The notes beneath the pieces were generated by a model that saw only the letters and a program-made list of their open reading frames with translations, did no database searches and was not told where the DNA came from. A DNA stretch of 32,000 nt. Origin: Acaryochloris marina MBIC11017 (GTDB taxonomy: Bacteria > Cyanobacteriota > Cyanobacteriia > Thermosynechococcales > Thermosynechococcaceae). A program made the position numbers and the translations under genes. Location of the stretch: NCBI RefSeq assembly GCF_000018105.1, contig NC_009926.1, positions 60,001 to 92,000 of the forward strand. The letters run 5' to 3'. The number at the start of each line of letters is the position of its first letter. Position 1 is the stretch's first letter. Positions 2,593-32,000 of this stretch are shown here, piece after piece.

Positions 2593-3378
2593 TCAGGTCT
2601 TCTTACGAGACTTTTGAGCCTTTGAGTTTGTTGCTTTAGATTCAGCTTGTAGGCTTGGATCGTAGATATAGCACATTGGTACGTTTGCTTTTTTCCAAAG
2701 ATTATTTTTAGCCCCCTGGTACATGGCGGCTTTAATCCTACCCCGCTCAGCTTTCTGATCATCTTTACTCAGTTCACCAAACAGTCTCACAATCAAATCA
2801 TCGTAATGCATGACTTTCCCAGGATTTTCCTGCATGATCTGTGTGATCGCATCAATTTTCTTCATCTGGTCATAGGGCTTGTTCATTGTCAGAACGCTGG
2901 ATGAAGGGCTGCTTGTTTTCTTCTGATTTTTCTTCTTTGCTGTTGCTTGAGATACAGCTTTCTTGGGAGTTGAGGATTTTCTCTTCCCGGATGAGGGCGA
3001 AGCTTTTGGAGCGGCTTTTTTTGGGGTAGCTTCAGCTTTGGGTTCTACGGTTCCCTTTGTCTTTGCAGTTGACGCTGGTTTCTTTGGAGTTGCAGACTTT
3101 TTCTTTGATGCAGCTTTTTGAGTAGTTTTCTTAGACTTGGCTTTAGGTTCTACTGTGTTGGTAACTGTTGAGTCTGGCGCTTCTGAATCTATTGAGTCTG
3201 CTTCACCTTGAAGGATTGAAAGGATATCAGAGCCTAACAATGGGTCTTCAATCAACGTATCCAGAGACGTGATTTTAGTCTTGAGTTGAGTTGTTTGAGC
3301 TTCTAGTTCAGCGAGTGTCTCCTGGTAGTGAGTCTTTAGCTCAAGGAGCACTGTGGAGTATTTGTTGTCAGCGGCCAT
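2593..3378 (-). CDS. coiled-coil / Lys-Ala-Pro-Thr-rich (histone H1-like) protein with a small C-terminal globular, possibly HARE-HTH-like, domain; paralog of 20912..21667
   Basis: ATG at 3376-3378. The N-terminal 60 residues are almost identical to the second copy. The central part is a KKxxxK/TPKK low-complexity tract. The C-terminus (DAITQIMQENPGKVMHYDDLIVRLFGE..) resembles winged-helix HARE-HTH modules. Confidence 0.7.
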   Translation of the reverse strand: MAADNKYSTVLLELKTHYQETLAELEAQTTQLKTKITSLDTLIEDPLLGSDILSILQGEADSIDSEAPDSTVTNTVEPKAKSKKTTQKAASKKKSATPKKPASTAKTKGTVEPKAEATPKKAAPKASPSSGKRKSSTPKKAVSQATAKKKNQKKTSSPSSSVLTMNKPYDQMKKIDAITQIMQENPGKVMHYDDLIVRLFGELSKDDQKAERGRIKAAMYQGAKNNLWKKANVPMCYIYDPSLQAESKATNSKAQKSRKKT

Positions 3379-8947: not shown

Positions 8948-9859
8948 CTAAAATAAATAGCTATTCATAGCAAATTTAACTTCTAAAATCAGACGACTCC
9001 TCGACATAGGAAGAGTTAATTTGTGAAAACAATAAAAATCCTCAACAAAACCACAACCAGCTTTACCGTAGATATTTTCTATATTGTTATGACCATAATA
9101 ATTGATGATACCCATATCCGTAGAGTCTCTAGTTAAGGAAAATTGATCCTTCAGTCTTTTGTTTCTATGACTACCTTTGACAAAAACATGATTCCCCTCT
9201 GATACAGGCACATCAGTAAGGTAGAACATGAATTTTATAAAGCGATAGTCTTCTAGATCATAATGAAAATTGAAGAATCCTCTTACAGCCTCATTCAATG
9301 GTACGGTTACTGGAAAAGTCCATCGAATTTGACTATCTAATAGCACTGGAATTGTTTCTAAATATTTGGTAGCGATTTCTCTAAGCTTAGAATCATTTTC
9401 AAGTTTTTTAATAGCTGGGCATATTAGGGAACTATGAATATGATTAGCAGTAACGAAAATTTGTTGATACTTTAACTCTGACTTTTCTTTGTCTGACAGG
9501 GTGAACTTCAACTTAGGATTACTATTAGCATGATATTCTACTTGAGTTGAAAAAGCTAATACCTCATGTAAAATATCTGATGGTAAGTTAATTCCAAAGA
9601 ATAGACCATCTTTTTTCAAATGTTCAACAACTTTGTTGACATCAAGAGATGGAAATAATGTATTACCCCCTTGTTCTAAATCTTGATATATCTGAGCAGA
9701 AGAATGTTTAGTAACTAAGATTGCAAGAGATCTCAGTATTTGTATCCGAGTAGCACAAAACATTACAAACCACTTTGGATCTGCTATTGCTTGATAAGAG
9801 TATTGAAGACACTTTCGTTTAAGTTTCGACCAAAGACGTTGGTAGTAACCACTCATCAT
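8948..9859 (-). CDS. Fe(II)/2-oxoglutarate oxygenase-like protein (PhyH-like)
   Basis: FHYDLED (HxD), then GNHVFVKGSH (distal His), then SRSRLILEVKF (Arg) in the order expected for the PhyH/2OG double-stranded beta-helix fold. The gene is very AT-rich. Confidence 0.5.
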   Translation of the reverse strand: MMSGYYQRLWSKLKRKCLQYSYQAIADPKWFVMFCATRIQILRSLAILVTKHSSAQIYQDLEQGGNTLFPSLDVNKVVEHLKKDGLFFGINLPSDILHEVLAFSTQVEYHANSNPKLKFTLSDKEKSELKYQQIFVTANHIHSSLICPAIKKLENDSKLREIATKYLETIPVLLDSQIRWTFPVTVPLNEAVRGFFNFHYDLEDYRFIKFMFYLTDVPVSEGNHVFVKGSHRNKRLKDQFSLTRDSTDMGIINYYGHNNIENIYGKAGCGFVEDFYCFHKLTLPMSRSRLILEVKFAMNSYLF

Positions 9860-10899: not shown

Positions 10900-12041
10900 C
10901 TCAGTACAGGACAAAAAGCTTGAAAGATTTATAGAGGTGGGGTTTCAATAGGATTACCACAATCCCTAGAAACCCCATGACACAATATAGCGAACTCAAA
11001 CGTGCACTCCAACCCCACCTGAACTGGCATGGTGCCCGTTTATCATTTCTGACCTTATTCTTGTTGGCCTTGTTCAAGGTAAAAACCGTTAACCTGAGCG
11101 AATTAGCACTGGGATTTGACGGGAGCGCTCAATCCGACTCCAAGTACAAACGTTTGCAACGTTTTTTTCGAGGGTTTGACATTGAGTATGAAACCATCGC
11201 CAAGCTTGTCATCGACTGGATGCAAATTCCACAGCCATGGGTTTTGAGTATTGACCGCACCACCTGGGAGTTGGGTACTCACTGCTTCAACATCCTCAGC
11301 ATTGGTGTTGTCCATGAGGGAGTTGCTTTTCCTCTGTTGTGGTGGATGCTTCAGAAGAAAGGCAACTCCAGTAGTGATGAACGGATGCAGTTTATTGACG
11401 CACTCCTGCATATCTGCCCTGATCCTCAAATCCGATGTTTGTGTGGGGACCGAGAATTCATTGGCCAGCTTTGGGTTCGCTATTTACGCTTAGCGCCACT
11501 CTTGCCATTTCGGCTCAGAATTCGAGCGACGGATAAAATTGAGCGCCAGGGCAAGGCCCTTCAAACCAAGGTGGTTTTTGCTCATCTTCAAGTGGGTCAG
11601 CGCCAGCGACTCAAAGGTGAATGTCGTGTATGGGGGCAGCCGGTTGCAGTGGAAGGACTGCGATTGGAAGATGGTGCGCTGCTGGTTGTGATTGGTCCGA
11701 CACAAGATGACCAGCTTATTGAGGATTATGCCTTGCGATGGGGAATTGAAACTCTATTTGGTATTTTCAAAACGCGAGGCTTTTGTCTTGAATCGACCCA
11801 CTTTACTGAGGTTGAACGCTTACGAAAGCTATTTGCTCTATTGACTTTGGCATTGTGTTGGGCGATGAAGACGGGGCTGTTTTTACATCAACTCAAACCC
11901 ATTGCACTCAAAACCCATGGACGTCGAGCAAAGAGTCTATTCCGTTTAGGATTTGACCATTTACGGCAGATGATTCTCAATCCTTCTCCCGATAATGAAC
12001 GTGAGTTTCTGAAAGCTTTACAACTTTTGTCCTGTACTTAG
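10900..12041 (+). mobile_element. intact IS4-family insertion sequence (1142 bp)
   Basis: Imperfect terminal inverted repeats: CTCAGTACAGGACAAAAAGCTTGAAAG (left) against the reverse complement of the right end, CTAAGTACAGGACAAAAGTTGTAAAG. A single transposase ORF ends inside the right IR. Flanked by a perfect 9-bp direct repeat. Confidence 0.85.
10977..12041 (+). CDS. IS4-family DDE transposase
   Basis: D in SIDRTTWE, D in CGDREFIG, and the Y-(2)-R-(3)-E-(6)-K signature in YALRWGIETLFGIFK. Confidence 0.9.
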   Translation: MTQYSELKRALQPHLNWHGARLSFLTLFLLALFKVKTVNLSELALGFDGSAQSDSKYKRLQRFFRGFDIEYETIAKLVIDWMQIPQPWVLSIDRTTWELGTHCFNILSIGVVHEGVAFPLLWWMLQKKGNSSSDERMQFIDALLHICPDPQIRCLCGDREFIGQLWVRYLRLAPLLPFRLRIRATDKIERQGKALQTKVVFAHLQVGQRQRLKGECRVWGQPVAVEGLRLEDGALLVVIGPTQDDQLIEDYALRWGIETLFGIFKTRGFCLESTHFTEVERLRKLFALLTLALCWAMKTGLFLHQLKPIALKTHGRRAKSLFRLGFDHLRQMILNPSPDNEREFLKALQLLSCT

Positions 12042-16687: not shown

Positions 16688-17674
16688 ATGCCAGGTTTAC
16701 AGAATATTCTTCTAGAATTCTATAACTATTTCGGTGAACTACCATTTATTGGAGTCACTCTCATACTCGTTGGTTTAGTTAGTTTTCGAGCTATTCCGAT
16801 GTCAACTGATTTGGCAACAAGCTCGGCTGCTGGCTTGGTAGGTTTAATATGGGGCAACTCTCAACGAACCCTCGTTATTAATTCAACAACTAATCTCCCA
16901 GAGTTAGGGATCATGCTTGTGTCATTATTTGGGCTAGGTCGACTAGGAGGAATTGCAACACCTCTTGGATCAAATTTATCCAACGTTTACTTAATCTTTA
17001 TTGTTTCACCTATAGTTTTAATTTGCAAATGGATTTTGATTAAAAATCCAAATCATATCAACAACTTGATGATATTAGCAAAGCTAGAAAAGCAATTGAT
17101 TCTCTGGCATGTATTTATGGCACTATTAATGTTCTTTTTTGCTAGTTTTGCCTACTTAATTTTAATGGGAGACTTTCAATTTATTCAGCATTCAGAAGGG
17201 AATGCCGTATTAGACATAATGAGTTTGGTAATTTCCATAATAGTTAGTTTATGCGGTGTTATTGTTTTTTTGATATTTGAGTCAAAACTAAAAAAACGTC
17301 GGCCAGAGCTATTTGAAGATATCGATGATACCAACTTTGAGGCAAGCTGGTCTCGCTTTTTTCTTGGCGTAATTATGTTGTGTTTATCTTGTTATATCTT
17401 GAATGACTTATTTGCAGTTTGGACCGAACTATTTCAGAACCATTTTGTAGAATTTAGCTTGTTCCCCACAATCCATTACTTTATTGGTAGCTTAATCTCT
17501 TCTTTACCAGAGATGTCTGTAGCGGTAGGTAATTATGAGCGACTTAGTAGCCCAGACTTAAATACTGCCTTAGGGTCTGCTAGCCAGTCATGTATGACCA
17601 ATTTGTTGATTGCTGGTTTAGGTAGTGTTATCGCTTTGGTGCTCTCAATGGTTGGGCTGCTTCAAGAGATCTAG
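16688..17674 (+). CDS. polytopic membrane protein, divergent CaCA (cation/Ca2+ exchanger)-like
   Basis: About 10 hydrophobic helices. Two alpha-repeat-like segments: TTNLPELGIMLVS..PLGSNLSNVYL and SSLPEMSVAVGN..ALGSASQSCMTNLLI. AT-rich. Confidence 0.5.
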   Translation: MPGLQNILLEFYNYFGELPFIGVTLILVGLVSFRAIPMSTDLATSSAAGLVGLIWGNSQRTLVINSTTNLPELGIMLVSLFGLGRLGGIATPLGSNLSNVYLIFIVSPIVLICKWILIKNPNHINNLMILAKLEKQLILWHVFMALLMFFFASFAYLILMGDFQFIQHSEGNAVLDIMSLVISIIVSLCGVIVFLIFESKLKKRRPELFEDIDDTNFEASWSRFFLGVIMLCLSCYILNDLFAVWTELFQNHFVEFSLFPTIHYFIGSLISSLPEMSVAVGNYERLSSPDLNTALGSASQSCMTNLLIAGLGSVIALVLSMVGLLQEI

Positions 17675-20413: not shown

Positions 20414-20911
20414 TTGGAACCTCCGATTGTCTGCGTTGGTGAGGTTGAGTCTTTTGATAGCTAAATAGTTCCCCGACAACTGATTGCTAAGGACATGGGA
20501 TCGCACAAATTAACTTTAATCGTCTGTGGAGTTAGTCTGCCGACCTGAGTGCGCTGCTTGTTGCTGCGACGATTAGAATTAATTACGAATGGATGGCTTG
20601 TCTGCAATCATTCCCATACGCAACGCTGTAAGGCATCGAAGAATTAGTCACGCGATAATCGATAATATACCGCCAGAAGAAATAATACCGTAAATACTAG
20701 GGTCAATGTGCCTAAATCTATTGCCCGTTCAGAGTTTATCTCGTTGATCTTGCAGCTTTTAGGAGTGGCACTCAGGAGTAATTCCCTTCGGATAGTCTTG
20801 ATTACAAGAATGATGGCATCCGCTTGATTTGTGTGAGGAGTCTTGGCTGAACCCTGCTATATCAGCAATCTCCCATCAGGACTTCTTAGGAGATTTCTGG
20901 GTTTTAGCCGT

Positions 20912-21667
20912 TTAGGATGCCTCAGGTTTAGCCTGTGACTTTTCCTCAGTGAAATAACTCATGGATTCTTTCGGATCTTTGCGCCAACGGTTTTTATAGA
21001 CGCCACTCTGCATGGTTTTGTACACTCGATCTCGCTCAGTCTTGAGGTCGTCTCCACTCAGTTCTCCATAAAGCTGCAAAACTAAGTCATCAACGTGAAC
21101 CGAAGTGCCTGCCTTTTCTTGCATGATTTGTGCGATGGCATCAGTCTTAAACATTTCAGTGTAGGGCCATTGCATTGGCCGACTGCTGGATGAAGCTTTA
21201 GTTGCTTTGGCTTGCTTTTTCTTTTTGGCCTGTCTTTGAGATGCTGCTTTCTTGGCAGTGGAAGGCTTCTTCATTGAGGTGGAGGGTGAAGCTTTTGAGG
21301 TAGCTGTCTTTGGAGTAGCTTCAGCTTTAGTTTCTACTGTTCCGCTTGTCTTAGCAGTTGAAGCTGATTTTTTTTGAGTTTTAGGCTTTTTGTTTGAAGC
21401 AGCTTTTTGAGTAGTTTTCTTAGCCTTGGCTTTAGGTTCTACTGTGTTGGCAACTGTTGAGCCTGGTGCTTCTGATTCTATTGAGGCTGCTTCACCTTGA
21501 AGGATTGAAAGGATATCAGAGCCTAACAATGGATCTTCAATCAACGTATCTAGAGAGGTGATTTTAGTCTTGAGTTGAATCGTTTGAGCTTCAAGTTCAG
21601 CGAGTGTCTCCTGGTAGTGAGTCTTTAGCTCAAGGAGTACTGTGGAATATTTGTTGTCAGCAGCCAT
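20912..21667 (-). CDS. coiled-coil / Lys-rich histone H1-like protein, paralog of 2593..3378
   Basis: Same N-terminus (MAADNKYSTVLLELKTHYQETLAELEAQT.QLKTKITSLDTLIEDPLLGSDILSILQGEA). Same upstream ~120 nt. Diverged C-terminal globular domain. Confidence 0.75.
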   Translation of the reverse strand: MAADNKYSTVLLELKTHYQETLAELEAQTIQLKTKITSLDTLIEDPLLGSDILSILQGEAASIESEAPGSTVANTVEPKAKAKKTTQKAASNKKPKTQKKSASTAKTSGTVETKAEATPKTATSKASPSTSMKKPSTAKKAASQRQAKKKKQAKATKASSSSRPMQWPYTEMFKTDAIAQIMQEKAGTSVHVDDLVLQLYGELSGDDLKTERDRVYKTMQSGVYKNRWRKDPKESMSYFTEEKSQAKPEAS

Positions 21668-21807
21668 AGTTTGTCGTAGATTAGTGTAGTTTTAGCAAAG
21701 GTAAGAAAGCTAACTTATAGCATTCCCAGAATTAACTTCCTTTGTATCTAATCATTAATGGGCTAATTTGGGATTTCTGGGGCGTTTAGAAATTTTTCCC
21801 GTAGTAC

Positions 21808-23718
21808 TTAACCCTTGGGTTTGGGGAACTTGGAAGGTGGCTCAAAATACTGAACAGGTGTATCTTTTAACGCCTCACTCATAAACTCTCGCCACACAGG
21901 AGCCATCCATCCTCCACCCGTTGCCCCAGACCCAATCCGGGCGTAATTGTCATTGCCAGCCCACACGGCCACTGAAAGTTGAGGCACATAGCCCACAAAC
22001 CAAACATCCCGCTCGGAGGAAGTGGTACCCGTCTTTCCAGCTGCGGGGCGACCAATCTGGGCTGCTACCCCCGTCCCTGATTGCACGACGGTTTGCAACG
22101 TACTGTTCACGGCAGCAGCAGCCCAAGGATTGAGCACCAACTTGGGTTGCGGGGTATTGTTAATCAACACTTTACCCGTAGGATCTGTGACTTGCAAAAT
22201 GGCTGTTGTTTTGGACTGCCAGCCATTATTGGCAAAGGTGGCATAGGCTGAAGCCATCTCTACGGGTGTTAAGTCTACTGCCCCTAAGGGAAGTGAAATC
22301 ACATTGGGGATCGGGCTGGTAATCCCTAATTTGCGACTGACATCTATCACATTCTTGATGCCTACTTTTTGCCCCATGACAATGGCAGGCACATTGCGCG
22401 ATTGCGCGAGCGCTTGACGAATGGACATCGAGCCCTGAAAGCTGCGGTCGTAGTTTTGAGGCTTATATCGCTGGAGCCCACCATCATTGAAGCTCACGGG
22501 AGAGTCTTTAACCATAGAGTCTGGGGTGTACTTCCCTGTTGCAAAGGCTGTGTAATACACCAAGGGTTTAAAGGCCGAGCCAGGTTGTCGATACGCTTGA
22601 GTCGCTCGATTAAATTCACTCTTTTTATTGTCCACTCCACCGACAATAGCCTTGATGAAGTGCGTTCTTGGATCAACCGCGACTAATGCCATTTGGTCTG
22701 CGGCATAGGCATAGTGTTGATGATTCCTGCGAACGGTCTCCTCAGCGATTTTCTGCATTTTCCAGTCGAGGGTCGTTTGAACTCGGAATCCCCCTCTAAC
22801 CAATGCCTCTCGACCAAATCTTTCCGTTAATTCTTGAATGACGGTATTGGTAACATCAGGAGCTTGGCTCCGTTGATAGGAGGTAATTTCTCCTAGAGTG
22901 ATTTTCTCAGCCCGAGCCGCTTCAGCTTCAGCGGGTGTAATCCATTTCAGCTCCTCCAAACGTCCGAGAACGATGTTCTGTTGTTCTTTGGCCAGGTCTA
23001 AATCCACAAATGGACTATACCCTTCTGGTGCTTTGATAATCCCAGCCATCATGGCGGATTCAGCTAAGGTCAGATCTTCAGCAGACTTATTGAAATAGCT
23101 CCGGGCAGCCGTTTCTACCCCATAGGTGTTATGGCCCCAATACACCTGGTTGAGGTACAACTGTAGGATTTCATCTTTACTGAGTAATTGTTCAATTCTC
23201 AGGGCTAGCACTGCTTCTGCGAGTTTGCGGCTAAAAGCTCTTTCTGGGGTCAGATAGAGGTTTTTAGCCAGCTGCATACTCAGGGTTGAAGCCCCTTGCA
23301 CCGTTTGGCCTGCCTGGTAATTGGTGATGGCTGCCCGTAGAATACCGACCGGATTAATGCCGTCATGCTGATAAAAGTTGCTATCTTCAATGGCGAGTAC
23401 AGATAGTTTTAGGTGGGGCGAGATTTTAGCTAGAGGGACGACCTGGCGATTCTCTTCCTCATGCAAGCCCGTGAGTAACTTGCCGTTGATGTCATAGATA
23501 TAGGTTGTTTCGTTGGGTGAAAAGCTAGCTAATGAAGTCACATCAGGCAGATCACGATAACTAATCGCTACCCCCATCAGTCCTCCTGCTAAGCCAGCAC
23601 TTCCTAGGAGGGTCAGGGTCAATATGGTGGTCAAGGTAGCATCGCCTATCCCCCTTAAAAAGAGGGTGGAGGTTGATCTAGAGGAGAAGTCCTGAGGAGA
23701 AGTGGCACTAGATGACAT
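21808..23718 (-). CDS. mrcA: class A penicillin-binding protein (GT51 transglycosylase + transpeptidase)
   Basis: EDSNFYQHDGI and RKLAEA are GT51 motifs. SAFKP (SxxK), SRN and KTGTT are transpeptidase motifs. ATG at 23716-23718 is preferred over the GTG at 23745. N-terminal TM anchor. Confidence 0.9.
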   Translation of the reverse strand: MSSSATSPQDFSSRSTSTLFLRGIGDATLTTILTLTLLGSAGLAGGLMGVAISYRDLPDVTSLASFSPNETTYIYDINGKLLTGLHEEENRQVVPLAKISPHLKLSVLAIEDSNFYQHDGINPVGILRAAITNYQAGQTVQGASTLSMQLAKNLYLTPERAFSRKLAEAVLALRIEQLLSKDEILQLYLNQVYWGHNTYGVETAARSYFNKSAEDLTLAESAMMAGIIKAPEGYSPFVDLDLAKEQQNIVLGRLEELKWITPAEAEAARAEKITLGEITSYQRSQAPDVTNTVIQELTERFGREALVRGGFRVQTTLDWKMQKIAEETVRRNHQHYAYAADQMALVAVDPRTHFIKAIVGGVDNKKSEFNRATQAYRQPGSAFKPLVYYTAFATGKYTPDSMVKDSPVSFNDGGLQRYKPQNYDRSFQGSMSIRQALAQSRNVPAIVMGQKVGIKNVIDVSRKLGITSPIPNVISLPLGAVDLTPVEMASAYATFANNGWQSKTTAILQVTDPTGKVLINNTPQPKLVLNPWAAAAVNSTLQTVVQSGTGVAAQIGRPAAGKTGTTSSERDVWFVGYVPQLSVAVWAGNDNYARIGSGATGGGWMAPVWREFMSEALKDTPVQYFEPPSKFPKPKG

Positions 23719-23938
23719 GGGTGTATTAATGGGCAACCTTAACACACTAAATTTAGAGTGTGAGGTTACTGATAAAAAATGACTGAGAAGCTTGCTATAC
23801 CTAAAGTCTGCCCATATTCAACAAAAGTTTTACGCTCGTTCTTAAAGAACCATCATCTCTGCAAAGTAACTCAACAATATGGGGATTTCATGAGTTAGTT
23901 AAACAACCCAGAGTATCGATGACTATGTTAACGACCCG

Positions 23939-26200
23939 TTAAAGAATTGCGGAAGCTAGTGATTCGTTGGCCTTGGGAACACCTCCCAAACGTCGCTCAA
24001 GCAAGGTGTATCGTTGCCTATCTTTGATCTGCCTGACGGCCATGCTAATTGCGTTCTTAGGACCAACGAGCATCGCTAGCTTTTTTGCCCTCGTAAGTCC
24101 CGTATAAAGCAGGTTTCGGCTGAGCATTATGTAATGCTGCATGTACATGGGCAAGATGACGACGGGATATTCTGACCCCTGGCTCTTATGAATGGTGACG
24201 GCCCAGGCTAACCCAATTTCATTTAAATCAGCCAAATCGTAGGAGACTGACCGCTCCGCATACTGAACCGTCACGGCAATTTCTTCTAGATTGATGGCCT
24301 CAATGACTCCCATATCGCCATTGAAGACCTCGCGGTTGTAGTCATTAACCTGTTGCAGCACTCGATCCCCCACCCGGAGTGTGAGTCCCCCTCGCGTGAG
24401 TTCAGCCTTGTCGGGATGAGGAGGATTGATCAACGCTTGTAAGACTTGGTTGAGCTTGCGAGTCCCCACTTCCCCACGGGTCATGGGACAGAGGACTTGC
24501 ACATCCCGTGCCGGCACATACCCAAGTTGAGGGATAAGGTCGTTGATTAACTCTTGAATGGCTTGAACTCCTTGCTCCGGTTCCGGTGCTCCTAACCAAA
24601 GGCAATCGGACATTGGAGATGGACTGACGGATTCTAACTGGGGGAACTGGCCTTGGTTAATACGATGGGCATTGCGGATAATGTGACTGGCTTGGGCTTG
24701 GCGGAAGATCTCCGTCAGTTCCATGACGGGAATCTGTTTAGCGGTGATCAGATCCAGCAAAACATTTCCGGGGCCCACACTGGGAAGTTGGTCCGTATCC
24801 CCCACGAGCAAGAGTTGAGTCTCTGGGCCAATGGCCTTGATCAAAGAGTTTGCTAAAAACAAATCCAGCATAGACGCTTCATCAATGACCACAGCATCAG
24901 CTACTAGGGTTCGCTCTGAATCCCTTTGAAACTTCATCGTTTTGGGGTCAAACTCCAAAAGGCGATGGATGGTTTTAGCTTCATGACCCGTGACTTCACT
25001 CAGTCGCTGAGCGGCTCGGCCTGTGGGAGATGCTAAAACGATTTCTTTTCCCATCGCCTTCCACAGCGCCACGATGGTCCGAGTCGTGAAGGTCTTGCCC
25101 GTTCCCGGTCCGCCAGTGAGAATCACGACACGCTCACTAGCAGCCAACTCCACCGCCTGCTGCTGTTGTTGAGAGAGATTAACATCCGTTTGGGCCATAA
25201 AGCGCTCTAGCCAGCTGCGAACGCGGTTCTTATCCACCTTGATTGGGTGAGCCAAGAGGTGGAGGAGTCGCCGGGATAGGTGAAATTCAGCCCGGAAGAA
25301 CGGCGGTGCATAACAAAGCAGCTCCGTCGAAGTTTCTCGCTCTATCTGTTCAACGATCAGCTCAGCATCTGAGATCATGGCATGGATCAGATATTCCACC
25401 TGGTCTGGCTTAGGGTGATACTCAGGGAGGGTCAGCTGCTTTACAGCGCGGTCAATCAGTTGTGGTTGAGGAAGATAGCAATGCCCTTCTTCTGATGATT
25501 CGCTGAGAACATGTAAAAGACCACTGCGATACCGGTATTCAGAGTGGGGTGAGATACCTAAGCTGCGGGCTATCTGATCTGCTGTGATAAAGCCAATGCC
25601 GTAAACATCCGTCGCTAGTCGATAGGGGTTATGGGTGACGGTTTCAATCGCCTCATCTCCATATTGCTTGAAGATTTTGACGGCATAAGTTGTTGAGACG
25701 CCATGCCCTTGGAGAAATACCATCACCTCTTTGATAGCTTTCTGGCTATCCCAAGCCGTCTGAATCATCTTGACTCGCTTCTTCGCAATGCCCGGTACTT
25801 CACTCAGACGGTCAATGTGATGCTCAATGATGTCCAGGGTATCCAGACCAAAGTGAGCGACGATGCGTTTAGCAGTGACGGGGCCGACCCCTTTGATCAA
25901 GCCACTGCCGAGGTACTTCTCAATTCCAGTAAGAGTGGCGGGTTTGGTTTCTTTGTATTGCTTGACCTGAAATTGAGGACCATATTTGGGATGGTCTCGC
26001 CATATTCCCTGGAGTTGAAGGGTTTGGCCCGCTTGGATATTGGCGAAGCTACCCACGATGGTAATCAATTCACGGGTTCTGGGAGCTTTCAATCTGGCAA
26101 CCGTATACCCAGATTCTTCAGAATGAAAGGTCAAGCGTTCTACGACCCCTTGTAGTTGCTCAATGGGGGGTGAACTCATCGTGGCAGAACCATTGGACAT
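23939..26200 (-). CDS. recD2: RecD2-like (RecD/TraA family) SF1B DNA helicase
   Basis: N-terminal HhH (GVGPVTAKRIV), Walker A GGPGTGKT, DEASM, VGDTDQLPSVGPG, TIHKSQGSEYP and LLYTGLTRAK. Confidence 0.9.
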   Translation of the reverse strand: MSNGSATMSSPPIEQLQGVVERLTFHSEESGYTVARLKAPRTRELITIVGSFANIQAGQTLQLQGIWRDHPKYGPQFQVKQYKETKPATLTGIEKYLGSGLIKGVGPVTAKRIVAHFGLDTLDIIEHHIDRLSEVPGIAKKRVKMIQTAWDSQKAIKEVMVFLQGHGVSTTYAVKIFKQYGDEAIETVTHNPYRLATDVYGIGFITADQIARSLGISPHSEYRYRSGLLHVLSESSEEGHCYLPQPQLIDRAVKQLTLPEYHPKPDQVEYLIHAMISDAELIVEQIERETSTELLCYAPPFFRAEFHLSRRLLHLLAHPIKVDKNRVRSWLERFMAQTDVNLSQQQQQAVELAASERVVILTGGPGTGKTFTTRTIVALWKAMGKEIVLASPTGRAAQRLSEVTGHEAKTIHRLLEFDPKTMKFQRDSERTLVADAVVIDEASMLDLFLANSLIKAIGPETQLLLVGDTDQLPSVGPGNVLLDLITAKQIPVMELTEIFRQAQASHIIRNAHRINQGQFPQLESVSPSPMSDCLWLGAPEPEQGVQAIQELINDLIPQLGYVPARDVQVLCPMTRGEVGTRKLNQVLQALINPPHPDKAELTRGGLTLRVGDRVLQQVNDYNREVFNGDMGVIEAINLEEIAVTVQYAERSVSYDLADLNEIGLAWAVTIHKSQGSEYPVVILPMYMQHYIMLSRNLLYTGLTRAKKLAMLVGPKNAISMAVRQIKDRQRYTLLERRLGGVPKANESLASAIL

Positions 26201-26292
26201 GGGTGGTTACCTCAATGTTAGATGCTGATCTTCTCTGAAGAAATGAACTCCATTGAAATGAAGGGGAAACGTTTTGTTTAAGACCGCCGAAA

Positions 26293-27366
26293 TCAAGCCG
26301 CTTCAACTTCAGCTAGAGGTGATTCATCTTCTTCACCATTTGTGTCAGCATGGGCTGCACAATCAGCTCCCAACGCCAACCTCTGGCGGACCTGTTGCTC
26401 AACTGCTTGTGCAAACTCTGGATGATCGGCAAAGTACTGAATGGTATTCTCTCGACCCTGACCAATATTGTCACCCTCATAGCTATACCAAGCCCCTTTG
26501 CGGACGATCACCTCTGCTTCCGCAGCCATGTCTACTAAGCAACCGATGGTGGATATTCCCTGCCCAAATAGAATGTCAAACTCCGCTAGCTTAAATGGAG
26601 GTGCGACCTTGTTCTTGGCGACCTTCACTTTTGCCCGGATACCATACATCTCCGTGCCTTTCTTCAAGGTCTGAACACGACGAATATCCAAGCGAACGGA
26701 CGCATAGAACTTGAGGGCGTTCCCTCCAGTGGTGACTTCGGGACTGCCATAAGTAACCCCAATCTTTTGACGGAGTTGGTTGAGGAAAATGACGGTGCTA
26801 CCTGACTTGCAAATGTTGCTGGTGATCTTGCGCAGGGCTTGGCTCATTAATCTGGCTTGCAAACCCATATGGGAGTCGCCCATATCCCCTTCAATCTCAG
26901 CCCTTGGAGTGAGAGCAGCGACGGAATCGACGACCACTAAATCAACGGCACTGGAGCGGACCAGCTGATCCACCACTTCCAGGGCCATTTCCCCAGAATC
27001 CGGTTGGCACACGAGCAACTCAGAGACATCCACTCCCAAAGCCGCGGCATAAACCGGATCTAAGGCATGTTCCGCGTCCACAAACGCTGCCACTCCCCCA
27101 GATTTTTGGATTTCAGCGATCGCATGGAGGGCCACCGTCGTTTTCCCGGAACTTTCAGGGCCATACACTTCAATGACCCGACCTTTGGGGAGCCCTCCGC
27201 CCAAGGCTAGATCCAGGGGTAAAGCACCTGTAGAGATGGTTTCAATCTGCATCCGAGCGGCATCTCCCAGCCGCATAATCGCCCCTTTGCCAAAGGTCTT
27301 TTCCACGTTTTTCATCACCAAATCGAGGGCTTTTTGCTTCTCGGTCATTTCCGTTTTGGCACTCAT
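26293..27366 (-). CDS. recA: recombinase RecA
   Basis: GPESSGKTT Walker [12 protein letters not shown]1/L2 loop regions and overall collinearity with bacterial RecA. Confidence 0.97.
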
Positions 27367-27408
27367 AAGGGGATCTCCAAAGGATCAAGATGGGGATGCT
27401 AGACCAAT

Positions 27409-27437
27409 ATAGTAATCTTGTACTAAAATGGTGTCAA
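27409..27437 (-). promoter_or_regulatory. sigma70-type recA promoter
   Basis: The minus strand reads TTGACA (27437-27432), a 17-nt spacer, then TACTAT (27414-27409). A GGAG Shine-Dalgarno lies 9 nt before the recA ATG. Confidence 0.55.
27411..27424 (-). promoter_or_regulatory. LexA-box-like palindrome overlapping the recA -10 element
   Basis: The minus strand reads AGTACAAGATTACT. It departs at one specified position from the cyanobacterial LexA consensus RGTACNNNDGTWCB as I recall it, and it lies within the spacer/-10 of the promoter above. Confidence 0.45.
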
Positions 27438-27482
27438 CATGATACTTTTATTCACGATTTGCCGCCTCACCGCGTGGTTGTC

Positions 27483-27686
27483 ATGGCGATAGAGACACTG
27501 ACTGATTTGGTAGGATTCCCAGATGGCTGGCTCGTTGGCGTCTCATGTTCCTTGGAGTGGGGATACCAGTGTTGGGTGATTACCCCAGAAAGGCAGGTCC
27601 ATACTGACGGTGAGTTCTATGAGAGTAGTTTTGTGGCTTTGTCTGCGGGTCGATTCTTGGTTGAGCATTCCTTGGAGGTGGAGTGA
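27483..27686 (+). CDS. small hypothetical protein (67 aa)
   Basis: The track ORF starts at 27390, but that stretch overlaps the recA promoter, so the internal ATG at 27483 is more plausible. Its stop overlaps the GTG of the next ORF (GTGA). No family recognised. Confidence 0.3.
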   Translation: MAIETLTDLVGFPDGWLVGVSCSLEWGYQCWVITPERQVHTDGEFYESSFVALSAGRFLVEHSLEVE

Positions 27687-28459
27687 AAAGTGAACCCATC
27701 GTTATGTCTTGGGAAGAGTATGAACTCATGCCTTGGCGGTTGGGCTGGAAGCATGAATATTTCAATGGGATGGCTTACCTCACGCCCAGACAGCAATCTG
27801 TTCTGACCGTCATCGAGGTTGCCCCCCGAAACGATACCCTTCAGTCCATCAAGATCCGACCTGTTGTGCCAACGGATGCAACTGAACTCAAGCATCTGTT
27901 CTTTGAGGTTTTTCACGACTCTGTTGAATATTGCAATTATGAAGAGCAGAATATTCAAGAATCAGCCCAAAGCTGTATTGATAACTATTTTGGCGCGGTC
28001 AAAGGTGAACCCTCAAAAGTGTCATGCGTTGCCACTTCAACAGAGGGGGAACTCATAGGAACAGCTCTAGTAATTGAGCAGCCTGAACGGCACCCCTATC
28101 TTCGTTTGTTAGGCATCTCCCCATCATGGCAACGCCGTGGTGTCGCAACCAACCTAATGGCGACAATACTCAACCAACTCGTTAACACCTCTTTTACCCA
28201 GCTAGAGAGTCGATATTTCCTAGCGAATGAAGCGAGTAGAAACTGGCACCATCAATTTGGATTCCAGGATCAGCTCGACTTATTTGTCGCTCGTCTGTTT
28301 TACCGGCATGCCCAGCATGAATTATGGCGGCAGGAAAAACTCGGTCAACTCTCGAAGATAGACCTGGCCCGTTTGGCATCTGAAGTCGAATACTGGCAGG
28401 CTGAAGTGGATCGTCAAGAAGTTGCCTTTGAATCAACTTACCCCCGTGAACTGTCCTAA
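27683..28459 (+). CDS. GNAT-family N-acetyltransferase with an N-terminal extension
   Basis: LIGTALVIEQ..YLRLLGISPSWQRRGVATNLMATIL matches the acetyl-CoA-binding motif A (Q/RxxGxA). An alternative ATG start is at 27704. Confidence 0.7.
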   Translation: MKSEPIVMSWEEYELMPWRLGWKHEYFNGMAYLTPRQQSVLTVIEVAPRNDTLQSIKIRPVVPTDATELKHLFFEVFHDSVEYCNYEEQNIQESAQSCIDNYFGAVKGEPSKVSCVATSTEGELIGTALVIEQPERHPYLRLLGISPSWQRRGVATNLMATILNQLVNTSFTQLESRYFLANEASRNWHHQFGFQDQLDLFVARLFYRHAQHELWRQEKLGQLSKIDLARLASEVEYWQAEVDRQEVAFESTYPRELS

Positions 28460-28540
28460 CAGATTGACTTCTCATCATCAACGGACAAAGCCCACCGCTC
28501 TGCATTAGAATGACCAAAAGTTTGTCCCAGTTAGCTACCT

Positions 28541-30844
28541 ATGCCTACTGCTACTTCTGAGAAGCTGATTCAGCTCCGAGCGCAGCTCCAAGACTGCACC
28601 AACCCTACTGCTGCCAAAATCCTCAAGAGTACGATTGTTAAACTTGAAGCCCAGCTTAGTTTAGGACAGGCTCAGACTAAGGTATCCAAGATTGACCAAC
28701 GGAAGGCAACACTAAAGAATTCAAATAAGCAGACCAAGCGGAAGGCAGTACAACAACAACCAATAACGCTGAAGCCTCCTTCACTGAATACAGTAGAAAC
28801 AAAACCTAAAGCGGAACCTCAGAAAGAACGACCCACACTACCCGCCCATGAGAAAACATTGTTAGCGGATGATGTACTGACGCAGAACGAAAATATTGCA
28901 ACTCAGAAAAGCCTTGAATCAAAGTCAGAAACATCCCCTAAGAGTAAGTCCCGTTTCTCCCCTGATGTCATTAAAGTAGCCAAGCGGCTGGTCCTCCCTG
29001 ATGAACTCTGGCAACGTCCTCAAGTCCAAGGCATCACCATCGATGGTCCTACTTCGCGGGACTTGGACGATGCCATCTGGATTGAAGCGACTGAGTCAGG
29101 GGCAGTCCTCTCCGTTCATATTGCTGATGTCTCTGAACTCGTGGAGATGGGCTCAATATTGGATAAGGTTGCACTCTCTCGCACAGTCACACGCTATTTC
29201 AGCAATGGGAATGCACCCATGCTGCCAAGACCCCTGTCTGAAAATAAGCTGAGCCTGCTGGAAGGTGAAGCCCGACCTACCGTTACCGTACAGGTTACCC
29301 TCAACCCGAACGCCCAGATGGTTGACGTCAAAATCTTTGAATCCTGGTTGGTGAGTCAAAAACGCTTTACCTACGCCGAAGCCTCCCAGCCTAAATCATC
29401 TACTCCTTTTCATAACACTCTGGAAATGGCTCACCAATGGGCCTCACATCTGTACCGAAATCGGCTGACATCAGGTTCGATTGGGGCGACCCAGACGGCT
29501 CAAGGCCAGTGGCTCACAGAAGAAGGCAGCCTTATCCAAGGTAAACTTCATCCAAGCCATATCCTCATTCAAGAATTTATGATCCTGGCGAACCTCGCCG
29601 TCGCTCAATGGCTAGCCGATCAGGATATCCCAGCGCTGTATCGGAATCATACCGCCAGAGCCATTGCCCCAGATCGGGAAACGATGTATCAAACGTTGTT
29701 GACGTTAGGGTCAAATGCAGCCATTCGTCAGCGGTTGCACAGTTGGATGAACCGGGCCGTGTATAGCCCCGTCTTAATAGGGCACTTTGCCCTGAACCTT
29801 CCCGCCTATTGCCACTTCACCAGTCCGATTCGCAGAGTCGCTGACCTGATCAACCATCGGATTGTCAAAGCCCGCCTCAAACATCAAGGCCTACCCTATA
29901 CCCAGTCTGAACTGGTGAAATTGGGACAGCATATTGCCCAGGTCAAGGATGAGCATAAAGAGCAGGCCTCGGAGTTTTTTAAAGCAGCCCATCAAAAGGT
30001 CTACCAGGAGCAACTTCAGACCCCCGAAGACTTAGCAAATCTCTCTGGGAAAGAATTCACACGACTCCTGAAATATGCGGTTGAGTCTCAGGGGGTTGAT
30101 CACCTTCGCAGTGAACTATTGACCCGGTTATACGCTGAGCAACTAGCCGTACAGGATCTCTACCTATTGCTCTTTCAGTCCAAAGAACTTGAGCTACATC
30201 AGCAAGTGATTCAGTATCTGTCTAGCCATATCCATGATGCGGCGAGTGTGATCACCATTGCCTCCAATCGAGAAGGGAACTGGGAAGCATTTAAATATCT
30301 AGAAGCGGAGAATAAACCACCATTCCATGTTTGGCTAGAGGTGAAAATTTCTGGAGACACTTTAACGACGATTCATCCCGCTACCCATTCCCGCAAACAA
30401 CCCGCTCGTCATCACGCTTGTTTGATATGGATAGAAGCTTATCTCCAGACTAGCTTAGTCTCACCAGAGCAACGAGCACAGCCAGTACTACCTGAGCCGC
30501 AGTTCAAGTCTGGTAATGAAGACATAAAACGAGTAACAGCACCCTTATCCAAATCAATGCATACGGCATTGGTGAAGCCCCTTAAGGAGGGGCAGAACTT
30601 TGTCGGGATGCTGGTTGATGTTTGTCAAACCTTAAGATGGGAGACCCCTGTGTACACAATGGACAGCTCCGATGAATGGTTTATCTGCGAGTGTGAGTTA
30701 TCGGTTTTAGGTCAGCAGCTTGAAGGGAGTGGGGTAGCAAAGAAGAAGAAATTGGCGAAGAGTATCGCCGCTAGAGAGATACTGGAGCAATTGAGAGAAC
30801 GAGGTCAACAGCAATTGCAAGAGTGGCTGGAGAGAGCAACTTAA
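28541..30844 (+). CDS. RNase II/R-family (RNB domain) exoribonuclease with a Lys-rich N-terminal tail and a C-terminal dsRBD
   Basis: RNB motifs ITIDGPTSRDLDDAIWIE and GHFALNLPAYCHFTSPIRRVADLINHR. C-terminal NFVGMLVDVCQTLRWETPVYTM..WFICECELS..GSGVAKKKKLAKSIAAREILEQL is dsRBD-like. No CSD or S1 sequence recognised. Confidence 0.85.
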   Translation: MPTATSEKLIQLRAQLQDCTNPTAAKILKSTIVKLEAQLSLGQAQTKVSKIDQRKATLKNSNKQTKRKAVQQQPITLKPPSLNTVETKPKAEPQKERPTLPAHEKTLLADDVLTQNENIATQKSLESKSETSPKSKSRFSPDVIKVAKRLVLPDELWQRPQVQGITIDGPTSRDLDDAIWIEATESGAVLSVHIADVSELVEMGSILDKVALSRTVTRYFSNGNAPMLPRPLSENKLSLLEGEARPTVTVQVTLNPNAQMVDVKIFESWLVSQKRFTYAEASQPKSSTPFHNTLEMAHQWASHLYRNRLTSGSIGATQTAQGQWLTEEGSLIQGKLHPSHILIQEFMILANLAVAQWLADQDIPALYRNHTARAIAPDRETMYQTLLTLGSNAAIRQRLHSWMNRAVYSPVLIGHFALNLPAYCHFTSPIRRVADLINHRIVKARLKHQGLPYTQSELVKLGQHIAQVKDEHKEQASEFFKAAHQKVYQEQLQTPEDLANLSGKEFTRLLKYAVESQGVDHLRSELLTRLYAEQLAVQDLYLLLFQSKELELHQQVIQYLSSHIHDAASVITIASNREGNWEAFKYLEAENKPPFHVWLEVKISGDTLTTIHPATHSRKQPARHHACLIWIEAYLQTSLVSPEQRAQPVLPEPQFKSGNEDIKRVTAPLSKSMHTALVKPLKEGQNFVGMLVDVCQTLRWETPVYTMDSSDEWFICECELSVLGQQLEGSGVAKKKKLAKSIAAREILEQLRERGQQQLQEWLERAT

Positions 30845-30860
30845 CCGCATAGAGAAAACT

Positions 30861-30894
30861 CTCTCCCAGTCCATTCTTCCTGAGACTGGGAGAG
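30861..30894. terminator. 11-bp perfect hairpin between the convergent RNB and rbp genes
   Basis: CTCTCCCAGTC (30861-30871) pairs with GACTGGGAGAG (30884-30894). On the minus strand it is followed by AGTTTTCTCT, so it is a likely rbp terminator. Confidence 0.55.
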
Positions 30895-30918
30895 CCCATC
30901 ATCGAATTTCAGATTGCG

Positions 30919-31206
30919 TTAAAAACGGTTTCGACCACTAAAGTTGTTATTACCTCTATTGTTCTCACGGGGTCTAGCCTTGTTCACTTTGAGTGTTCGC
31001 CCCATCCATTCAGCCCCTTCGAGTTCTTCAATAGCCTTGGATTCTTCGGCATCGTTGCCCAATTCAACAAAGGCAAATCCTCGCATTCTGCCAGTCTCGC
31101 GGTCTTTGGGAACATGAACGTTAGAGACGGCCCCATATTCAGCAAACACGGCCTGAATTTCATCTTGGGTAACGTCGTAAGAAAGGTTACCAACGTAAAT
31201 CGACAT
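30919..31206 (-). CDS. rbp: RRM-type RNA-binding protein, short class
   Basis: The ATG at 31204-31206 gives MSIYVGNLSYDV.. (RNP2) and RGFAFVEL (RNP1). The longer 134-aa track ORF adds a non-conserved extension. Confidence 0.9.
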   Translation of the reverse strand: MSIYVGNLSYDVTQDEIQAVFAEYGAVSNVHVPKDRETGRMRGFAFVELGNDAEESKAIEELEGAEWMGRTLKVNKARPRENNRGNNNFSGRNRF

Positions 31207-31247
31207 AAACAAATATCCAAAATCAATAAGGTGAGGAGATATAGATT

Positions 31248-31327
31248 TCGGTGCGCGGTCTTGGGAATTAAACTGGCGGATACCAAACAATTCTGAAAAC
31301 AAACGTAAAACCGATACTTGCATCTCA
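31248..31327 (-). promoter_or_regulatory. conserved rbp 5' leader element, shared with 7870..7950
   Basis: Same ordered sequence blocks at the same offset from the start codon as upstream of the first rbp gene. Confidence 0.45.
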
Positions 31328-31411
31328 ATTGCAATACTAACTGATCCCCAATTTTCCGTTTAGGTGAACTAATAAACTTTACAGATATTTAGGTTAGTAA
31401 AGATTAAAATT

Positions 31412-31528
31412 TTATCCCCAGATTTTCCCCACATTTCCCACAATATTTCCCATGTTATCCACATCTGATGGGATGATTTCCACAGGTCAATACTGTAGGG
31501 CTTGATGTTCAGCTATTTCTGTGGAATA
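31412..31528. promoter_or_regulatory. array of DnaA-box-like 9-mers
   Basis: TTATCCCCA at 31412, TTTTCCCCA at 31423, TTTCCCACA at 31434, a degenerate TTTCCCA core at 31446, TTATCCACA at 31455 (exact consensus), ATTTCCACA at 31476, and inverted TATTCCACA at 31520-31528. An AT-rich tract lies immediately 5'. Confidence 0.55.
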
Positions 31529-31792
31529 TTCTAGAAACTGAAGTCAGCTTATTCTATGATAGATATGGCTTTGAGGCCATTAAATGTATTTCAAAAATAG
31601 ATTGACATTCTCGTAGGTTGGTAGCAAGATATAACTCCCAGCGATAAGGCTTGCACTCAACTTAACAAGCTGAAGGGCGGAGGAGTTTTACCACCAGCTT
31701 GGTTAGCTCATGAGGGCAACATTTGTTGTGCTTAGTTTTTGAAATAAAAACCATCGTTGATAACCCTACTATTTGAGAAGAGTAACCACTTC

Positions 31793-32000
31793 ATGTCCAC
31801 TACGATTAGCATATTGGCCGATATCCCTGAAGAGCTACATGATGCCTTGCGAGGTTATTTAGACACCCATCCTGATTGGGATCAGAGTCGGGTTCTTTCA
31901 GCGGCGCTGTCGTTATTCTTGATGCAGAATGGCACAACAGATCGCCGTACAACTCGTGTGTATTTAGATAGTCTCTTTAGAAGAGAACTACCCACTGCCT
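31793..32000 (+). CDS. conserved cyanobacterial small protein (DUF2811-like); 3' end outside the window
   Basis: The hand translation MSTTISILADIPEELHDALRGYLDTHPDWDQSRVLSAALSLFLMQNG... resembles the DUF2811 family as I remember it. The frame is open to the window edge. Confidence 0.55.
   Translation, partial: MSTTISILADIPEELHDALRGYLDTHPDWDQSRVLSAALSLFLMQNGTTDRRTTRVYLDSLFRRELPTA

Follow-up and report, generated by a model that had tools for sequence, protein, structure and literature searches.

What does a dense, helically phased cluster of DnaA boxes do in an intergenic spacer that has neither dnaA nor dnaN beside it? The question is raised by a 32,000-nucleotide stretch of plasmid DNA from the cyanobacterium Acaryochloris marina MBIC11017 (NC_009926.1, positions 60,001–92,000; hereinafter the window), in which such an array occupies the 586-bp spacer (31207–31792) between rbp and a divergently transcribed gene encoding a small DUF2811 protein. 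A preliminary description of this DNA had read the array as a candidate replication origin or a DnaA-assembly locus, with a DnaA-regulated rbp promoter as a further option. We propose, with a probability that we place at roughly 55%, that the array is a non-origin DnaA-assembly site in an ancient cassette that couples the expression of DUF2811 to the status of DnaA. In this proposal the phased boxes would be the platform on which DnaA assembles, within a cassette that also includes an inverted box, a TTGACA promoter and the DUF2811 gene and is found throughout the cyanobacteria.

Box matches were defined as 9-mers with at most one mismatch to TTATCCACA or TTTTCCACA on either strand. By this measure five same-orientation boxes start at 31412, 31423, 31434, 31455 and 31476 and, with an inverted box counted, six matches fall inside 120 bp (31412–31528). 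The largest 120-bp cluster in 300 dinucleotide-preserving shuffles of the whole window was three, and in 2000 shuffles of the spacer alone a cluster never exceeded this number. The total of box-like 9-mers across the window is ordinary; hence, the signal lies in their clustering. Elsewhere in the window, a perfect TTATCCACA occurs only at 15286. Most of what the preliminary description stated about the boxes themselves stands, namely their sequences and coordinates (including the exact classic DnaA box at 31455), a density beyond chance, the single further perfect box, and the helical phasing, the 11- and 21/22-bp steps of which are kept across the phylum. The spacer had been put at 587 bp, one more than measured, and of the six direct boxes that had been counted five are matches as defined here, while the sixth, at 31446, has three mismatches, is unconserved and is probably not a functional box. 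With this degenerate site included, the direct-site starts follow each other at steps of 11, 11, 12, 9 and 21 nt. A simple microsatellite was ruled out, as Tandem Repeats Finder detects just a two-copy 11-mer in the array.

The same plasmid module recurs within the genus. A. marina MBIC10699 has near-identical copies on its plasmids pREC2 and pREC3, and strains 'Moss Beach' and S15 have ~69%-identical copies on two plasmids each, while the divergent rbp/DUF2811 pair is also chromosomal in the latter two strains. Thus, what the window holds is a duplicate, carried on a plasmid, of the rbp/DUF2811 module of the A. marina chromosome. The chromosomal copy has four boxes (TTTTCCCCA, TTATTCACA, TTTTCCACA and TTTTCCACA), the starts of which are 22, 21 and 21 bp apart, a pattern that the window boxes at 31412, 31434, 31455 and 31476 (offsets 0, 22, 43 and 64 nt) match exactly, with the 31423 and 31446 sites being extras at half-steps relative to it. 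In a MAFFT alignment the 31412 box seemed to lack conservation since the program set an indel across it. In the ~69%-identical plasmid copies the boxes are nearer to the consensus (TTCTCCACA, TTAGCCACA, TTCTCCACA, TTTTCCACA and an inverted TTTTCCACA), and the DNA between them has diverged while the boxes persist.

The preliminary description had suggested looking for the array in related genomes. In DUF2811 loci collected from 80 other cyanobacterial species it is close to universal: 79 carry two to seven same-orientation boxes 230–750 bp upstream of DUF2811, and the sequence of the sole array-less locus ends 268 bp upstream of the gene. Upstream of DUF2811 the boxes number 6.6/kb, compared to 0.53/kb over the remaining DNA of the loci. 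Those of the main cluster all point the same way as the DUF2811 gene, and no other cluster of at least three boxes per 150 bp was found within the 613 kb of loci. The link between array and gene is exclusive and orientation-locked. Array-bearing taxa include metagenome-assembled genomes (MAGs) labelled Gloeobacterales and Thermostichus, as well as Thermosynechococcus, Acaryochloridaceae, Leptolyngbya-like forms, Chroococcidiopsis and many Nostocales. The genes nearest to the array and DUF2811 vary by lineage, with MFS transporters, SfsA and HisIE upstream and response regulators, UPF0093 and PHP-domain proteins downstream. The nearest neighbours in the 80 loci fall into 47 and 69 Pfam families on the two sides, and the 25 commonest families on either side include no dnaA, dnaN or other replication gene. 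Since the flanking genes are variable on both sides, DUF2811 and the array are inherited as a unit. The unit also occurs on megaplasmids: DUF2811 paralogues with the complete upstream cassette are present on the Nostoc replicons pCC7120alpha, HK-01 plasmid1 and N. flagelliforme pNFSY08. A plasmid DUF2811 of Leptolyngbya boryana, which is embedded in an operon, has no cassette. The full cassette also stands at loci whose DUF2811 is identical to the Nostoc PCC 7120 chromosomal protein BAB74960.1.

The same comparison bears on the possibility that the array regulates the divergent rbp, either through DnaA or through curvature of phased T-tracts acting on a cold-responsive promoter. The geometry in the window would allow this, as the first box lies ~85 bp upstream of the putative rbp start site and T4 runs phased at 11-bp steps should bend DNA. 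However, rbp is near DUF2811 in none of the 80 species' loci, nearly all of which have the array, and four rbp paralogues on Acaryochloris plasmids retain the rbp leader with neither DUF2811 nor the array. Moreover, the array and the rbp promoter are not a fixed distance apart, plasmid copies differing from the chromosomal ones by ~40 bp in this respect, and selection has acted on the CCACA core and not on the T-tract alone. We consider control of rbp by the array extremely unlikely, and the DnaA-regulated rbp promoter of the preliminary description would have picked the wrong gene: the comparative evidence assigns the array to DUF2811 rather than to rbp. Curved DNA or the T-tract as a sufficient explanation was likewise rejected, as the CCACA core is conserved as strongly as the T-run.

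Aligning 80 arrays on their last direct box brings out the anatomy of the cassette. This box holds 1.6–2.0 bits at each of its nine positions, with the consensus TTTTCCACA and usually a G as the next nucleotide, as compared to 0–0.4 bits at spacer positions between boxes. Box-to-box steps are quantised at 11 bp (n=52), 21 bp (n=55) and 22 bp (n=102). Box quality declines away from the gene, the distal box typically being TTTTCCCCA or TTTTCCTCA. Roughly 50 of the 80 arrays, among them those of MAGs labelled Gloeobacterales and Thermostichus, have an inverted TGTGGAAAA or TGGGGATWW 43–46 bp past the start of the last direct box. By this record of conservation, the boxes are evidently kept by selection across the phylum. 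Their consensus equals the DnaA box at all nine positions and is the 9-mer of the cyanobacterial oriC (PMC4674748).

The identity with the DnaA box is a difficulty for a reading in which the sites are bound mainly by some other factor, namely an autoregulatory DUF2811 protein or a response regulator reading 11-/22-bp direct repeats. Small DNA-binding autoregulators often adjoin direct-repeat arrays, the short N-terminal segment of DUF2811 and the helices after it could conceivably form a ribbon-helix-helix, and the G after the box is commoner than the known DnaA-box consensus predicts. Yet, among the variable positions (1, 3 and 7), position 3 tolerates change, as the TTATCCACA/TTTTCCACA variants demonstrate, the same 9-mer makes up the oriC unwinding unit in the same species, and DUF2811 gives no match to ribbon-helix-helix or other DNA-binding families in Pfam, NCBIfam or PDB sequences. 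A binder other than DnaA is, on balance, quite improbable.

Between the array and the start codon of DUF2811 the TTGACA element is invariant in 82 of 83 loci, with a −10-like CAnAAT following 17–19 nt on; the leader from this element to the ATG is highly variable in length (~30–470 nt). In 33 of 79 loci extra boxes are found in the early transcribed leader, at a density of 2.3/kb against 0.53/kb. This four-fold enrichment has a Poisson P of ~5e-14, which is not corrected for shared ancestry. In locus L024 a box overlaps the −10 region. The locking of the array in position and orientation to one promoter, together with leader boxes in many lineages, argues for a DnaA-assembly site that sets DUF2811 transcription. 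Consistent with DnaA as the ligand, the protein from three cyanobacteria binds such boxes in vivo by chromatin immunoprecipitation (ChIP) with quantitative PCR (PMC7198777). The wording of the preliminary description that withstands the comparison is that of a DnaA-assembly locus with no dnaA or dnaN in view, as its 9-mers match the cyanobacterial DnaA box, are phased, and are selectively kept across the phylum.

We posit that DnaA would first bind the strong promoter-proximal box at 31476–31484 and then spread cooperatively onto the weaker boxes, which at steps of 11 and 21–22 bp would lie on one helical face. The convergent inverted box ~45 bp downstream may bound or bridge this complex. Occupancy of the platform would tune the DUF2811 promoter 75–140 bp downstream of it, with repression at high DnaA activity being the favoured direction, such that the level of the 65–75-aa DUF2811 protein would report the status of DnaA, be it its level or its nucleotide state. 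As a side effect, each copy of the cassette might soak up several DnaA molecules. The array, its phasing and conservation, its locked link to DUF2811 and its lack of origin hallmarks are observations; that DnaA is what binds, in which direction it regulates and what the DUF2811 protein does are inferred.

That side effect could instead be the principal function. In a titration or DnaA-cycle locus akin to datA or DARS, the array would sequester DnaA or alter its nucleotide state, and DUF2811 would be a linked cofactor or passenger with a promoter that is not controlled by the boxes. Phased boxes with one opposite box, situated outside any origin and conserved en bloc, are in keeping with this, as are the rather large distance of the boxes from the −35 element and the extra copies on large plasmids, which would raise capacity in multi-replicon, polyploid cells. 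However, a pure sink needs no fixed orientation and position relative to one small gene over the history of a phylum, the extra leader boxes in 33 of 79 loci point to a transcriptional effect, and three to six boxes per replicon offer a small capacity. Hence, we regard titration as the main function as rather unlikely.

Several points weigh against a DnaA-assembly site that governs DUF2811. In the window the boxes lie 75–190 bp upstream of the DUF2811 −35 and none overlaps the promoter or the leader; thus, direct repression would need looping or extension of the filament. Strains of Synechocystis, Nostoc 7120 and Synechococcus 7002 deleted for dnaA grow normally (PMC7198777), so any DnaA-dependent output would be non-essential under standard conditions. 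Neither a genome-wide DnaA ChIP nor a ΔdnaA transcriptome in cyanobacteria was found in the literature searched. DUF2811 is a protein family without known function: two AlphaFold runs (with 24 and 108 sequences) gave three helices at low confidence, with predicted local distance difference test scores (pLDDT) of 57–58. No relatives outside its own family were recovered from PDB sequences (by profile), NCBIfam or Pfam, the last yielding DUF2811 and noise at E≤10, and no phage homologues were found. Finally, the cassette has further conserved blocks without an assigned binder, so that regulation is probably more complex than the boxes alone would imply.

One such block is an AT-rich motif, TTTGCAATTCTTATC(A/T)TT, ~10 bp 5′ of the first box (e.g., loci L045, L053, L084, L087, L013 and L043), which is conserved in Nostocales, Leptolyngbya-like forms, Chroococcidiopsis and the Nostoc megaplasmids and is absent from the window. 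Another, GAGTTTTTAT..GTAACAAAAA..CCCTGATT..TTCGT, separates the inverted box from the promoter in most DUF2811 loci, 50–100 bp 5′ of TTGACA; it has a weak equivalent in the window at 31569–31590 and partly resembles response-regulator operator half-sites. Within the promoter of most lineages, a C-rich run, ACCCCACCCCC, is conserved in the spacer between TTGACA and CAnAAT, which is usually 19 nt long (e.g., L008 from 3862 and L045 from 3803). The Acaryochloris copies, including that of the window, have a 17-nt promoter spacer without the C-rich run.

Could the array nonetheless be a replication origin, as the preliminary description had put first? Either the plasmid might start its replication there with the help of DnaA, or the array might be a chromosomal origin, secondary or ancestral, with DUF2811 as its constant neighbour. 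A dense, phased DnaA-box array with an adjoining AT-rich tract has the look of an origin, the cassette is found on chromosomes and several megaplasmids, and that of pMB01 is located at the extreme end of the deposited record. Moreover, cyanobacterial replication is unorthodox, with GC skews often irregular and many species starting replication at several sites or at poorly defined ones. In published predictions the oriC of cyanobacteria stands next to dnaN or dnaA and uses TTTTCCACA boxes (PMC4674748; PMC5987646). The oriC unwinding unit of Synechococcus elongatus reads TTTTCCACA-TTTTCCACA-GCCC-CTACTACTA..., with close variants in Thermosynechococcus elongatus and Gloeobacter, and the A. marina MBIC11017 chromosome itself has a strong unit with seven DnaA-trios at 3,125,962–3,126,005 (PMC8287927). 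We searched for such a unit as one or two adjacent boxes and, on their 3′ side in the TTATCCACA orientation, a spacer of at most 16 bp and three or more DnaA-trios (NAN, read on the complementary strand). No box of the array is followed by a trio-like run longer than two, as compared to five in the S. elongatus control, and the abutting box pair TTTTCCACATTTTCCACA is absent from the window and from 102 related loci. Thus, the array lacks the abutting pair, GC spacer and DnaA-trios that characterize the unit in these cyanobacteria.

Nor does the surrounding DNA favour an origin. No conserved AT-rich unwinding element is present 3′ of the array boxes. In known oriC units the unwinding side is 3′ of TTTTCCACA-oriented boxes, whereas the AT-rich tract of the window lies 5′ of the direct boxes and falls at the rbp promoter. 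In other Acaryochloris copies indels interrupt this tract or different sequence takes its place, and the 35 bp that separate the convergent boxes are not AT-rich. The tract that the preliminary description had noticed is genuinely AT-rich (Table 1), but as an unwinding element it would be on the wrong side and unconserved; it is best explained as DNA that overlaps the rbp −35 and extends upstream of it. The whereabouts of dnaA and dnaN, which the preliminary description had likewise raised, give no help to an origin: neither they nor a rep gene are among the identified flanking genes of relatives, and the neighbours of the array in the window are genes for rbp, an RNB nuclease, a GNAT enzyme, RecA, RecD2 and DUF2811/DUF2949. 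No rep gene was detected among 18 window open reading frames (ORFs) scanned against Pfam (all those of at least 350 aa plus smaller ones), and the array has no plasmid-specific iterons, its repeat unit being the generic DnaA box common to the chromosomes of 79 species.

The related plasmids have initiator genes of their own. On the 144-kb S15 plasmid unnamed43 a CyRepA1-family gene (L097 34560–38135) is situated 7.5 kb from the cassette, with ParAB elsewhere, and CyRepA1 homologues are found on 13 Acaryochloris plasmid records as against the cassette on only six. The weak cumulative GC-skew minimum of unnamed43, at ~94.9 kb, is ~17 kb from the array at ~77.3 kb; across the window, a short stretch of 32 kb, GC skew is uninformative. 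On this sequence evidence an origin at the array appears unlikely, and we give its plasmid and chromosomal versions together a very small probability. As a separate observation, the wide distribution of CyRepA1 genes on Acaryochloris plasmids suggests how these large plasmids replicate. We also considered whether the T. elongatus BP-1 'oriC bordered by unknown genes' is the DUF2811 cassette; it probably is not, since the unwinding unit of that genome, TTTTCCACATTTCCACA-GGCC-(CTA)4, does not occur within 4 kb of DUF2811 in three Thermosynechococcus relatives. The features of the locus are collected in Table 1.

Table 1. Coordinates of the array, the flanking genes and their predicted control elements (positions within the window)
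Feature	Position	Strand	Remarks
DnaA-box-like 9-mer TTATCCCCA	31412-31420	+	Distal, weak; by spacing (-64 from last box) equals box 1 (TTTTCCCCA) of the chromosomal copy
DnaA-box-like 9-mer TTTTCCCCA	31423-31431	+	Extra half-spacing box (+11); TTCTCCACA in ~69%-identical plasmid relatives
DnaA-box-like 9-mer TTTCCCACA	31434-31442	+	TTAGCCACA or TTAGTCACA in relatives
Degenerate site TTTCCCATG, TTTCCCA core	31446-31454	+	3 mismatches from TTTTCCACA; unconserved in relatives
Perfect E. coli-type DnaA box TTATCCACA	31455-31463	+	TTCTCCACA or TTTTCCACA in relatives
Promoter-proximal 'anchor' box ATTTCCACA	31476-31484	+	Same position is TTTTCCACA, near-invariant, in 80 aligned arrays
Inverted box TATTCCACA (plus strand TGTGGAATA)	31520-31528	-	Starts 44 bp past start of last direct box
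Promoter-like element of DUF2811: TTGACA, 17-nt spacer, CAAGAT	31602-31607, 31625-31630	+	From conservation; putative start
Putative DUF2811 5′ leader, ~160 nt	31631-31792	+	Conserved among Acaryochloris copies; no DnaA box in window copy
DUF2811 gene, 70 aa, PF10929	31793-32000	+	Runs past window end; stop expected ~32005
AT-rich tract, 76% A+T	31357-31411		55% in window; top 1.5% of 55-bp windows
Putative rbp 5′ leader with likely -10 TAGTAT (31334-31339)	31207-31339	-	Conserved in array-less rbp paralogues
rbp gene, 95-aa RRM protein	30919-31206	-	Adjoins cassette only in A. marina group

On the rbp side of the spacer, the paralogue leaders (window and L092–L095) share GGGGATC(A/G)GTTAG(T/C)AT, which includes the likely −10. 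The copies with longer leaders (window, L089, L003 and L092) have CTGTAAAG or TTGTAAAG ~30–35 nt upstream of the likely −10, and the first ~45 nt beside the rbp start codon are conserved even in plasmid rbp genes of Nostoc and Tolypothrix. To the left of rbp, Pfam identifies an RNB-type ribonuclease, a GNAT acetyltransferase, RecA, RecD2 and a penicillin-binding protein. The RNB protein is 100% identical to an A. marina protein; exact-protein look-ups gave no record for it or for protein P0142. The whole block of PBP1A, RecD2, RecA, a small ORF, GNAT, RNB/dsRBD ribonuclease, rbp and DUF2811 (window ~20900–32000) is duplicated near-identically on MBIC10699 pREC2 and pREC3 (L002 and L004) and comprises plasmid paralogues of housekeeping DNA-repair genes. 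A small DUF2949 gene is found 3′ of DUF2811 on plasmids (L001 880–1095, ~0.6 kb past the window end, and L099 14331–14453), and in pREC3 a group II intron reverse transcriptase is inserted between the two. S15 unnamed43 (L097 12798–13565 and 13749–16088) is a further case of core functions duplicated on Acaryochloris plasmids, with paralogues annotated as RpaB (a response regulator), RNB ribonuclease, Hsp70/GrpE/DnaJ, sigma factors and MreB-like proteins. Elsewhere in the window, a DDE-type transposase ORF is present at 10977–12041, and the ORFs at 432–1205, 1470–2132, 2593–3378, 8948–9859 and 16688–17674 have no Pfam match at E≤1e-5. No tRNAs were found in the window, and Rfam gave no match in the whole window at gathering scores or in 30800–32000 at E≤1.

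What might a DnaA-assembly site upstream of DUF2811 be for? Among the large bacterial groups, only in cyanobacteria can replication often dispense with DnaA, which some species have lost. Nostoc PCC 7120 is one that replicates without it, and for such species the function of DnaA 'remains unclear' (PMC7198777). In a protein search for DUF2811, no named hit came from species that lack dnaA (Cyanobacterium aponinum PCC 10605, Geminocystis NIES-3708, C. stanieri, 'Nostoc azollae' 0708 and UCYN-A). The cassette persists in Nostocales, and all the lineages sampled have the array, among them near relatives of Nostoc PCC 7120 with an identical DUF2811 protein, which makes it a target for the question of the role of DnaA and a concrete candidate for a retained role where replication does not need the protein. 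More tentatively, the array and DUF2811 might constitute an ancient DnaA-sensing module, already present in the MAGs labelled Gloeobacterales, the product of which regulates replication initiation or the cell cycle; we hold this to be possible but doubtful. Were it true, the module would be the conserved output of DnaA outside replication and would account for the persistence of dnaA in lineages such as Nostoc PCC 7120 and Synechocystis that replicate without it, and the megaplasmid copies would serve to set dosage or the titration of DnaA where cells are polyploid and have several replicons. DUF2811, a phylum-wide family, also gains its first testable context. We found neither a mention of this family nor a description of a second conserved cyanobacterial DnaA-box cluster in the literature searched, which misses many subscription papers. 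On a practical note, origin predictors that score DnaA-box density may mistake the cassette for an origin, on chromosomes as well as megaplasmids.

Comparison with known DnaA systems helps place the array. Rep-dependent plasmid origins such as RK2 oriV have a short DnaA-box array near AT-rich DNA, as does the present plasmid; unlike RK2 oriV, the cassette has no iterons and no adjoining rep, the same array is found on the chromosomes of 79 species, and CyRepA1 is encoded elsewhere. The cyanobacterial oriC unit (TTTTCCACA-TTTTCCACA, a GC spacer and CTA repeats; PMC8287927) shares with the array the 9-mer, the presumed protein and the organism. Unlike that unit, the array lacks the abutting pair, GC spacer and trinucleotide repeats and does not lie beside dnaN or dnaA. 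Within oriC of E. coli, low-affinity sites that share one orientation and are 2 bp apart follow a strong R box, a layout that guides the cooperative growth of an ATP-DnaA filament. The array resembles these sites in its same-orientation boxes, 11-bp period and passage from a strong anchor into weaker sites (PMC10325909). It departs from them in that most of its steps span two helical turns, it is not at an origin, and no unwinding element or helicase-loading context adjoins it. The E. coli loci datA, DARS1 and DARS2 control the availability or nucleotide state of DnaA and need IHF or Fis sites; to our knowledge, no IHF is known in cyanobacteria. Compared by layout alone, datA and DARS (PMC10380432) are likewise non-origin clusters with boxes in both orientations. 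They differ from the array in their need for IHF or Fis sites and in not being tied to one conserved gene.

The closest precedents come from Bacillus subtilis. Its sda gene, the promoter of which is regulated by DnaA, encodes a very small protein, as does the gene adjoining the cyanobacterial array. Eight intergenic DnaA-box clusters are described outside its origin, at which DnaA raises or lowers the expression of adjacent genes (PMC4447404; PMC7198777). They share with the array consensus boxes in intergenic DNA away from oriC and beside specific genes. The cyanobacterial array differs from them in belonging to another phylum and adjoining an unrelated gene, in its phylum-wide conservation and megaplasmid copies, and in its 11/21–22-bp phasing, its gradient from strong proximal to weak distal boxes and its convergent inverted box. 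For a non-origin DnaA-box cluster it is unusual in its regularity, its conservation across a phylum and its uncharacterised partner protein.

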